Origin: Escherichia coli
GTDB lineage: Bacteria > Pseudomonadota > Gammaproteobacteria > Enterobacterales > Enterobacteriaceae
Strand: one strand, 5' to 3'
DNA length: 64,000 bases
Assembly (NCBI RefSeq): GCF_002854065.1
Contig: NZ_CP024147.1
Positions within the stretch are counted from its first letter, which is position 1. Every line of letters begins with the position of its first letter. The notes under the pieces were generated by a model that did not search any database, was not told the origin of the DNA, and saw only the letters and a list, made by a program, of their open reading frames with translations. Shown piece by piece: positions 1 to 2,181 of this stretch. Position numbers and translations under genes: made by a program.

Positions 1-2181
1 TTCAACCTTCGCCACCATCTCATTACCAGAGCACGAGAGATAGTTTTGTTTAAAACCGCTATAACTGTCGACGTTCCCTGTTCCGAGGTTTACCGATGAA
101 TGCGTTGTCTGCTCCGCGGCAGTTAAATAGTCCTTTACTGCGGTTGGCCAGCCATACTCAGTCCCGATGATATTGCCAGGGTAAGCCGAATACAGACTTT
201 CCAGTGAGATCTCACGCGGTATATGCCCCGTGCCGCATTCTGCCTGCATACTGGTATTTTGATCGAATAACGCCCAGTCTTCGTTATTTTCCCGTACTGT
301 GCCTATTTCATGCGTGGTTTCAGCCGCCAGCAGCGGTCGTTTATATAAACTGCCAGCATCAATGATGCCGTGCATGTGGCCCCACATCCGCGCATATTCG
401 CTGTCCGGACTGGTCACCACCGTAAAGACCACATCTTTGGCATCTTCAGCAGTGAAATTACTGCGCATTTTCGCCGTAATATGCGTTTTAACGCCTGCGC
501 CGTCAGGCTGCGTCAGCAGCAGAGTTGCCTGACCATTGACGTCGGTCATTCCCTCATAATTATGATCATCTACCTTTTGCAGGTTGGTGCCGCCGGAAAT
601 TTGTACCGGATGCGCTTCCCACGCCGGGTCGGTTTGATTTTTGCGGTTAACGCCGTCATCGAGATGCAGCGAGAAGTAGTAATAAGCCAGCGGCTGATTG
701 TTATTTTTTTTATCGGTAATGGTCAGGCGTATCGTAGTGCTGTCACCGACCTCTGCCTTCGCGGCATTTATACTTTCATCAAAGTTACTGGGCGTGAGCA
801 CCAACTCTGGCTCAACATCGGGTTCTGCTTTATCCACACAGCTCACGATATACTTTGTACTGTCTGGTTTTTGCGCTTCGCTGCGGTTAGACACATCAGC
901 CGCGTGGTGCTGCCCGGTACTTCCTGCCAGAGATGACCAGTAATAATCACCCTGCATCGGCCAACCGGCGGTCTCCTGAATAGAGTTAGGGATCACCGTA
1001 GCCAGCGCGCCAAACTGGCGCATGCCAGGCAAAATATCGCAGTGGTTATCTGCGCCACTCCAGGTGAAGGTCGACCAGGTTTCACCGTGATCATTCACGC
1101 TGCCATCTTCGTTATCAACTTCCGCCGCCAATTTCGGACGACTAAAGGTGTAATTCATGGCCGTCAGGGTTTCCGCCATATGGCCCCACATATTGGCCTG
1201 CGGGGCATCCGGGCTGGTGAGTACAGTAAATATCACCGCCGTTTCACTGGTTTGCGAGATGCCAGAAAGGCTGACCACCAGCGGCGTTTTGACACCTGGA
1301 CCATTGGGCTGCGTCACCGTGACGGTAGCTGCGCCATCAGCATTAGTCGTGCCCCGATACTCCGTTGCTGTGGTGGTGAGTTCAGTGGTATCAAGATTGA
1401 CAGGTGAGGTGTTATTCACCACTCCCTGGCGGTTTTCAGCATCTTTTCGTTTGATAACAAAAGGGATATTGCCCGCAATATTACCTTCACAATCTTGGGT
1501 GGTTACGGTTAAGGTGATTGAACCATCGACAGTAGTCTTTGCCGCTTGTAACGTATCGTCATAGCCACTGGCGCTAATTGTCACCAGGTCGCCCTGGGCG
1601 GGAGCAATATTCAGCGTCACTTTATGTTCAGCCAACGGCACCGTCCCCTGATTAGGCACACCAGTTAACGTGTAGAGGTAGAGTAAAGGTAGCGCTTCCT
1701 GCTCATTGATTCGCGGCCACGCCACCAAAGAACGCCCTGCCAGATTCTGCGCGCAGAAAGAGCGGTCCGGGCGCGGTTGTGGGCTGAGCGGCGTATCTGG
1801 CGTCGCGGCATCCGCCCACACAAGAGATACAGCAGGAGGCGTCTGGTTTTGCCAGCCTAGCACGGGGGGATTAGAAAAAAGATCGCCTTCAGGATCGTGA
1901 GGGTTAACCAGAATCATTCTCGCCGCTGTGTCATCAACACTGAATGCGCTGGGTTTTACAGATGCCTGAATGTCGTAGGTTTTGCTCGGATCAAGCTGAA
2001 CGCTTCCCTGATAAACGGGTACGCTGGCGCTCTCTGCCCCGGGCACTGTGCCATTGATTGCGTCGGTCGAGATGCCAGTTTGTTGCCACTGGCCACCTTT
2101 TAATACTGCCCCAACCTGAAAAGAGAGGAAGAGCAGAAAAACCGCCGTTATCGCTTTTATCAGTTTCAAAGTCCCGTCCAT
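1..2181 (-). CDS. ratA: RatA-like large repetitive secreted/outer-membrane protein, N-terminal ~727 codons; gene continues past window start
   Basis: ATG at 2179-2181 (minus) opens a frame that stays open to position 1 (hand translation; not in ORF track because no stop inside window). Product starts [18 protein letters not shown] (signal-like) and contains two long internal repeats (..[32 protein letters not shown].. and ..[32 protein letters not shown]..). Position downstream of sinI/sinH matches the Salmonella CS54-island order (recollection). Plus-strand ORFs 370-936, 1042-1407, 1157-1564 are shadow ORFs. Confidence 0.6.

Follow-up and report, generated by a model that had tools for sequence, protein, structure and literature searches.

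Tandem Ig-like and adhesion-domain units of a RatA-like adhesin gene in Escherichia coli: divergence of the units and their number among strains

The gene at the left edge of a 64,000-nt stretch of Escherichia coli DNA, here termed the window, encodes a protein with long internal repeats, and the question arises whether these repeats make the gene unstable. The initial annotation took them for long, near-identical DNA repeats that are substrates for recombinational expansion or contraction. A comparison of the units as protein and as DNA, within the gene and among strains, points elsewhere: the repeats are very probably the first two of seven tandem Ig-plus-adhesion modules, in an old and diverged array that belongs to a RatA-like adhesin.

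The gene, its family and its locus

A single stop-free frame of 727 codons is found on the minus strand, and none of the three plus-strand frames is open across positions 1-2200 of the window. Positions 1-2181 are identical (100%) to the first 2181 nt of an intact gene of 6420 bp (2139 aa) in E. coli CUWW06 (NZ_CP182139.1), a genome that matches the first 24 kb of the window at 100% identity and that has the RefSeq product name 'adhesion domain-containing protein' for this gene. The gene order in CUWW06 is der, a zinc-ribbon gene (yfgJ), sinH, sinI and the ratA-like gene, then the convergent xseA, then guaBA. The ratA-like gene is thus located in the E. coli sinH-sinI-ratA island, with der/yfgJ on one side and xseA on the other. 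The genes of the cluster that lie in the window are listed below.

1..2181, minus strand: RatA-like adhesin gene, 5′ part (codons 1-727 of 2139), an open frame from the ATG at 2181 that leaves the window at its left edge
2472..3437, minus strand: sinI, directly upstream of the ratA-like gene, encoding a SinI family autotransporter-associated protein (NCBIfam NF040711, 420.6 bits, cutoff 165; RefSeq)
3493..5673, minus strand: sinH, first in the cluster, encoding an intimin-like inverse autotransporter (NCBIfam NF033423, 1480 bits, cutoff 999; RefSeq)

SinH matches inverse-autotransporter models across aa 1-726, and SinI shows a weak ZirU-family match in the NCBIfam search (E 4.7e-5). A position directly downstream of sinH and sinI, on the same strand, is that expected of a RatA/RatB adhesin gene, and the sinH-sinI-ratA synteny is kept at all seven inspected loci that have the upstream genes in view. 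No terminator-like site was found in the sinI-ratA interval. The cluster corresponds in E. coli to the CS54 island of Salmonella, and for UPEC it is described under the name 'ila' (PMC12928451, where Shea et al. 2022 is cited). Salmonella RatA and RatB are described as encoded beside sinH/sinI in CS54 (cited in PMC4943183 and PMC12928451).

The label 'ratA-like', given from the sequence at the outset, is borne out by the NCBIfam search, where the best match of the gene is NF011844 'RatA-like protein' (E = 0), followed by Salmonella RatA and RatB. It should be noted that the score of the full-length protein (2139 aa) against NF011844, 3195.6 bits in three stretches, falls short of the equivalog cutoff of 3870 bits; by the NCBI threshold the window allele is thus no equivalog but a shorter and diverged relative. 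The allele of ST131 scores 5335 bits against the same model. The scores also lie below the equivalog cutoffs of the Salmonella models, with 1653.6 against 3700 bits for NF011843 (RatA) and 1868.6 against 4079 bits for NF011842 (RatB).

Tandem, alternating BIg21 (PF05688) and InvE_AD (PF05689) domains, as in the RatA/RatB DUF823/DUF824 adhesins, are present in the gene. In the part encoded by the window Pfam finds two copies of BIg21 (212.7 bits, cutoff 32) and two of InvE_AD (174.5 bits, cutoff 27.4), and the full-length protein has seven of each. A putative N-terminal signal peptide and a conserved N-terminal domain, as in RatA/RatB-type proteins, precede them; the alignments to the NCBIfam profiles for RatA, RatB and RatA-like proteins start at about position 3-23, and homologues of aa 1-198, 45-77% identical, are found in both E. 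coli and Salmonella. The gene is a member of a known family, the NCBIfam 'DUF823/DUF824 repeat adhesin', and has a known domain-repeat architecture.

Similarity of the units as protein and as DNA

The part of the protein encoded in the window is divided as follows; all features are on the minus strand.

2104..2181, minus strand: probable signal peptide of the Sec pathway, spanning aa 1 to about 26, judged by a basic n-region, a hydrophobic core and a terminal VGA in the sequence
1615..2049, minus strand: N-terminal beta-rich domain, aa ~45-189, without a family match and conserved in the RatA-like proteins of Escherichia and Salmonella
811..1614, minus strand: repeat unit 1, aa 190-457, BIg21 (Pfam aa 221-321, window 1219-1521) followed by InvE_AD (Pfam; unit HMM aa 202-457)
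1177..1314, minus strand: conserved core of unit 1, through FTVLTSPD to MWGHM (motif positions; 16-unit alignment)
7..810, minus strand: repeat unit 2, aa 458-725, BIg21 followed by InvE_AD (Pfam aa 592-718, window 28-408; Pfam, AF2, Foldseek)
373..513, minus strand: conserved core of unit 2, through FTVVTSPD to MWGHM (motif positions; 16-unit alignment)

An AlphaFold (AF2) model of the N-terminus shows a helix at residues 2-29 and a disordered linker after it, and BLASTP finds no similarity between the first ~190 residues and the remainder of the protein. The full protein has seven units of 264-291 aa each, with WGHM anchors at aa 331, 599, 867, 1148, 1438, 1729 and 2017. Only two of the seven are visible in the window because its left edge sits almost at the boundary between units 2 and 3, two residues beyond it.

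The motifs by which the repeats were recognized are all present at both units. Unit 1 has TQP[ND]G[PA]GVKT at aa 290, FTV[LV]TSPD at aa 318 and MWGHM at aa 331, and unit 2 has them at aa 557, 586 and 599, respectively. They recur with a period of 267-268 aa, where about 230 residues had been estimated. The internal similarity is significant at the protein level. With the protein split for BLASTP (aa 191-460 against aa 461-727; a self-BLASTP of the whole protein returns the self match alone), units 1 and 2 align over 222 aa with 32% identity (E 7e-27), and their global protein alignment scores 224 against -38 +/- 16 in 300 shuffles (z = 16).

An alignment of 16 units, the seven of the window allele and the nine of ST131, has 21 invariant columns, among them T, S and P of TSPD, the WGHM motif, R158, E164, E177, W179 and a Cys. 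Unit 1 matches, in sequence, the InvE of Yersinia pseudotuberculosis whose crystal structure is 5N40 (aa 165-427, E 2e-28). For the AF2 model of unit 2 (pLDDT 91, pTM 0.83) Foldseek ranks 5N40 first (E 1.6e-21, TM 0.78, 33% identity), and intimin (1F00) and invasin (1CWV) come next. Each unit is therefore the Ig-plus-adhesion-domain pair of inverse-autotransporter tips, that is, an Ig-like domain with an adhesion (lectin-like) domain, by both sequence and fold. A beta-barrel or other anchor domain has no Pfam match in the window part or in the full RatA-like protein, and the N-terminal barrel that an inverse autotransporter carries in the same polypeptide was not found. Each module, of about 265-290 aa, consists of a BIg21 joined to an InvE_AD, the same two-domain pair as the Yersinia InvE tip and, more distantly, those of intimin and invasin. 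At unit identities near 30% the modules retain the fold-defining core alone (TSP..WGHM, R, E, W and two Cys).

The same units are far apart as DNA. A protein-guided codon alignment of units 1 and 2 gives 46% nt identity, and the two are not the nearly identical DNA repeats that had been proposed. A plain global DNA alignment of the two units gave 70% nt identity over 706 columns; this value is inflated, and the codon alignment is preferred. A repeat search of window positions 1-2181 returned chance-sized matches, the best in-register one being 15 nt at MWGHM (93% identical). The longest exact string common to units 1 and 2 is 11 nt; in shuffled controls this length averages 9.4 nt and reaches 14 nt at most. 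Over the whole gene, no exact direct repeat is longer than 15 nt in the window allele or 17 nt in that of ST131, and the best off-diagonal blastn matches within genes are 50-185 nt at 68-86%. DNA common to the units is confined to a 74-nt core, at 60-78% identity. For RecA-dependent recombination to be efficient in E. coli, a perfectly identical stretch of roughly 20-30 bp is required. The longest exact repeats, 15-17 nt, fall below this requirement, and the units are therefore poor recombination substrates; the DNA of different units is too diverged for homologous recombination.

Unit number among strains and age of the array

A match to the gene is found in 1724 of 5426 complete E. coli genomes (about 32%), and 47 complete genomes carry the window allele over at least 80% of the gene length. 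The gene is exactly 6420 bp long, stop-free and 98-100% identical in 41 of these 47 carriers. Two of the other six have IS insertions, an IS1 in strain 100416, where the locus differs from the window at 6 sites in 14 kb, and an IS3 in UTME-3. One carrier has a 309-bp deletion, shorter than one unit, in an annotated pseudogene that adjoins truncated sinH and sinI. The remaining three are mosaics of 6411 bp that still have seven units; in the mosaic of PE164, nt 2400-4500 are replaced (57-87% identity) between flanks of 97-100% identity, and the seven units are kept. None of the six length exceptions among the 47 carriers is a gain or loss of a whole unit.

Other alleles are longer. Those inspected (ST131, 536, EC42405, ST648 and PK8261) are 8043-8085 bp, and the three scanned with Pfam (ST131, 536 and EC42405) have nine units each. 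Unit number was assayed in a wider set with a unit HMM built from the 16-unit alignment and applied to 120 cluster representatives and the window protein; counting of the WGHM motif gave too few units in some proteins, and the unit HMM was used instead. The representatives were gathered with a full-length query, as the N-terminal 198-aa query returned short fragments alone, and all named representatives are Escherichia (E. coli, E. albertii and cryptic clades). The unit HMM gave these classes:

6 units: 9 representatives, 1739 aa
7 units: 27 representatives (26 and the window protein), 2111-2378 aa
8 units: 35 representatives, 2396-2663 aa
9 units: 49 representatives, 2598-2697 aa
11 units: 1 representative, 3264 aa

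The six-unit form is the window allele minus 200 codons from within unit 3, lost in frame. The deletion junction (…NGTQYGT|LEVVDQ…) has about 3 nt of microhomology and is out of unit register. Two further proteins have partial-unit deletions that are also out of register.

The prediction that repeat number varies between strains thus holds in part: 7, 8, 9 and 11 units are found across Escherichia alleles, but not among close relatives. As read from the 47 complete genomes for the window allele and from cluster representatives for the other alleles, copy number is stable within an allele lineage and differs between deeply diverged alleles (7, 8, 9, 11). The divergence between alleles extends beyond the ratA-like gene. 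Between the window and ST131, nt identity is 98% in bamB and yfgM, 93.7% in der, 82% in yfgJ, 78.5% in sinH and 75% in the 5′ part of ratA, and sinI is barely alignable as nt. On this comparison of sequences, the seven- and nine-unit forms are old haplotypes of the entire sinH-sinI-ratA cluster.

The age of the array is seen in a comparison of the units within and between proteins. Units of one protein are 26-43% identical in aa sequence (27-38% in the window allele, 30-43% in ST131). Units at the same position in the window and ST131 alleles are 78% (R1/R1), 77% (R2/R2), 61% (R3/R3) and 59% (R4/R4) identical, and the last units, window R7 and ST131 R9, are 66% identical. The C-proximal middle is ambiguous, with window R5 and R6 matching ST131 R6 to R8 at 42-48%. 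Counterpart units across alleles are closer than neighbours within a protein; the units therefore diverged before the alleles split, and the array is old. The array is not homogenised, and there is no sign of gene conversion between units. The highest unit identity within any of the 121 Escherichia proteins is 54.6%, and it occurs in the 11-unit protein. There units 5, 6 and 7 are 43, 55 and 45% identical to units 8, 9 and 10, a resemblance that points to an old duplication of a three-unit block.

These observations bear on the view that near-identical DNA repeats recombine often, so that the gene expands and contracts in the manner of a contingency locus or of surface proteins of the alpha-C/Rib type. 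The differences in unit number among Escherichia RatA-like proteins, and the block duplication in the 11-unit protein, are what such a process could leave behind, and unequal recombination must at some time have produced some of the changes in unit count (7/8/9/11). However the low identity of the units in the window at both levels and the short exact repeats argue against frequent events, as do the uniform length of the gene in 41 of 47 carriers, the lack of whole-unit differences and the examined deletions, which are out of register or smaller than a unit. Frequent recombination is thus a most improbable account of this gene, and the expected expansion or contraction is not seen among carriers of the window allele. 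Under the preferred reading, an old and diverged array, change proceeds by rare, old block duplications and losses, small illegitimate deletions, IS insertions and replacement of segments between diverged alleles.

It could also be supposed that the gene is a decaying remnant without current function in this lineage, and that its repeats are merely inherited. IS insertions, internal stops and deletions are found at the locus in several genomes, sinH is frameshifted in an O145 strain, and only about a third of complete E. coli genomes have the gene. Against this are the intact sinH, sinI and 2139-codon ratA of CUWW06, the 100% match to the window; the 6.4-kb stop-free frame kept at near-identity in 41 genomes; and the fold-core residues, which are invariant across all 16 aligned units. 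Decay is accordingly considered highly unlikely.

The modules, if maintained, may still be mainly a passive spacer. The Ig domains of intimin, invasin and InvE make up a stalk, and the terminal domain alone binds. The fold match to these three proteins, together with length classes that are quantised, would suit a spacer. However every unit has an InvE_AD-type adhesion domain beyond its Ig domain. In addition, by a plain comparison of identities rather than a formal test of selection, the adhesion halves of the distal units are 51-57% identical between alleles and the Ig halves 64-77%; the faster divergence of the adhesion halves fits exposed binding or antigenic surfaces. A mainly passive spacer role is thus judged improbable.

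Neither a hypervariable or phase-variable tract nor an assembly hazard should be seen in these repeats. Unit number (7, 8, 9, 11) instead marks deep allele lineages of the island. The positional orthology of units, and the distal adhesion halves as the fastest-diverging parts, are useful in typing and in the design of RatA constructs.

Possible export and role, and comparison with known systems

The RatA-like protein may be exported by Sec, and its surface display or release may be aided by the co-encoded inverse autotransporter SinH (and SinI). Heinz et al. 2016 proposed Rat-like proteins as inverse-autotransporter substrates, with SinH as the translocator, by analogy to ZirT/ZirS (PMC4943183). 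A SinH-dependent export of RatA across the outer membrane is suggested by this published hypothesis and by synteny. The protein could then act as a long, multivalent surface binding rod. A more elaborate scheme is conceivable, in which each of the 7-11 modules has its own ligand, strains diversify by exchange of module blocks between deeply diverged island haplotypes, as in PE164, and not by slippage of repeats, and SinH translocates a 230-kDa passenger that has no barrel; such a modular binding repertoire is regarded as unlikely.

Several of the elements brought together here are already known, namely the Pfam families BIg21 and InvE_AD (formerly DUF823/DUF824), the related InvE structure 5N40 and the E. 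coli sinH-sinI-ratA cluster. Among the closest systems, ZirT/ZirS/ZirU has the same plan of an inverse autotransporter gene followed by genes for barrel-less, Ig-containing partners. With about ten times the size of ZirS or ZirU, RatA would be secreted in a comparable way. Yersinia InvE resembles the RatA-like protein at the level of the unit, which has the fold of the C-terminal Ig-plus-adhesion pair of InvE (5N40, 33% identity, TM 0.78). However InvE, intimin and invasin each carry a beta-barrel of their own and one adhesion domain, at the terminus, whereas the RatA-like protein has no barrel match and the pair occurs seven times.

RatA and RatB of Salmonella enterica (CS54) share with the E. 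coli protein the repeat family, the N-terminal domain and the sinH/sinI neighbourhood, but the window allele scores far below the cutoffs of NF011843 and NF011842. Judged by profile lengths of 1860 aa for RatA and 2435 aa for RatB, the Salmonella proteins would have about 6 and 8 units, respectively. Salmonella has two rat paralogs plus shdA, and E. coli has one gene.

The closest relatives are the RatA-like proteins of ExPEC/UPEC strains such as 536 and ST131. These are encoded at the same der/yfgJ-xseA site, in the same gene order, and have the same N-terminal domain and BIg21-plus-InvE_AD module. They differ in having nine units and about 2680-2695 aa, against seven units and 2139 aa in the window allele, and overall identity to the window allele is about 52-55% in aa sequence, with 75% nt identity in the 5′ part. 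Their units 1-4 and their last unit are positional orthologs of those of the window allele.

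Divergent haplotypes of the island

The sinH-sinI-ratA island as a whole is present in E. coli as deeply diverged haplotypes. Window positions 1-7672, comprising the 5′ part of ratA, sinI, sinH, yfgJ and der, were compared with the corresponding ST131 locus (L004). The features of this region are:

2472-3437, sinI
3493-5673, sinH
2182-2471, sinI-ratA intergenic region, 290 bp
2498-2471, minus strand, weak promoter-like site overlapping the sinI stop

The nt identity is 78.5% for sinH and 75% for the 5′ part of ratA, and sinI is almost unalignable. Divergence also reaches the core genes next to the island, yfgJ (82%) and der (93.7%), whereas bamB and yfgM show 98% nt identity. 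The sinI-ratA spacer is approximately 110 bp in ST131-type islands versus 290 bp in the window, and only about 70 nt of it can be aligned between the two. A search for a terminator-like site within the window spacer found none; one promoter-like site, the weak one listed, was seen.

Mosaic, deleted and damaged ratA loci

Variants of ratA and places where the locus is damaged are:

L010 501-6911, mosaic ratA allele of strain PE164, also in F2_81 and E105
P0051-P0059, 1739-aa proteins, a deletion variant 99% identical to the window allele
L001 17317-18014, damaged locus, strain 100416
H92, damaged locus, strain UTME-3
L003 5504-7685, damaged locus
L007, damaged locus
L012 1798-9840, damaged locus

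In the mosaic allele nt 2400-4500, which correspond to units 3-5, are replaced by a sequence of 57-87% identity, with 97-100% identity in the flanks; the allele still has seven units. This indicates a segment exchange between ratA alleles. The 1739-aa variant, found on several contigs, has lost exactly 200 codons in frame within unit 3 (aa 803-1002), with a microhomology of only about 3 nt at the junction; its start is called internally, at aa 200.

The longest relative found, P0061, has 3264 aa and 11 units. Its units 5-6-7 display 43, 55 and 45% identity to units 8-9-10, respectively, a likeness suggesting that a block of three units was duplicated in tandem long ago.

Locus damage was often met among the genomes inspected. 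ratA is interrupted by IS1 and by IS3 insertions in some genomes and has internal stops in strains PK8261 and GDSC2227PM; sinH is frameshifted in O145 strain RM9872, and sinH/sinI are truncated in GDSC2227PM.

The gene name also collides with others: the homolog P0151 carries the label "ribosome association toxin A-like protein" in one source, and "RNA Antitoxin A" is the reading given for Salmonella ratA in a review table (PMC10812584). Both labels confuse the adhesin gene with unrelated toxin-antitoxin genes named ratA.

C-terminal similarity of SinI and SinH

Over their last ~110 aa, SinI and SinH each match the other's NCBIfam model: SinI aa 212-321 align with SinH profile positions 625-730, and SinH aa 611-723 with SinI profile positions 189-299. 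SinI also has a weak NCBIfam match to the ZirU family (E 4.7e-5). The C-terminal similarity together with the ZirU match fits the published idea of ZirT/ZirS-like partners for Rat-like proteins (PMC4943183).
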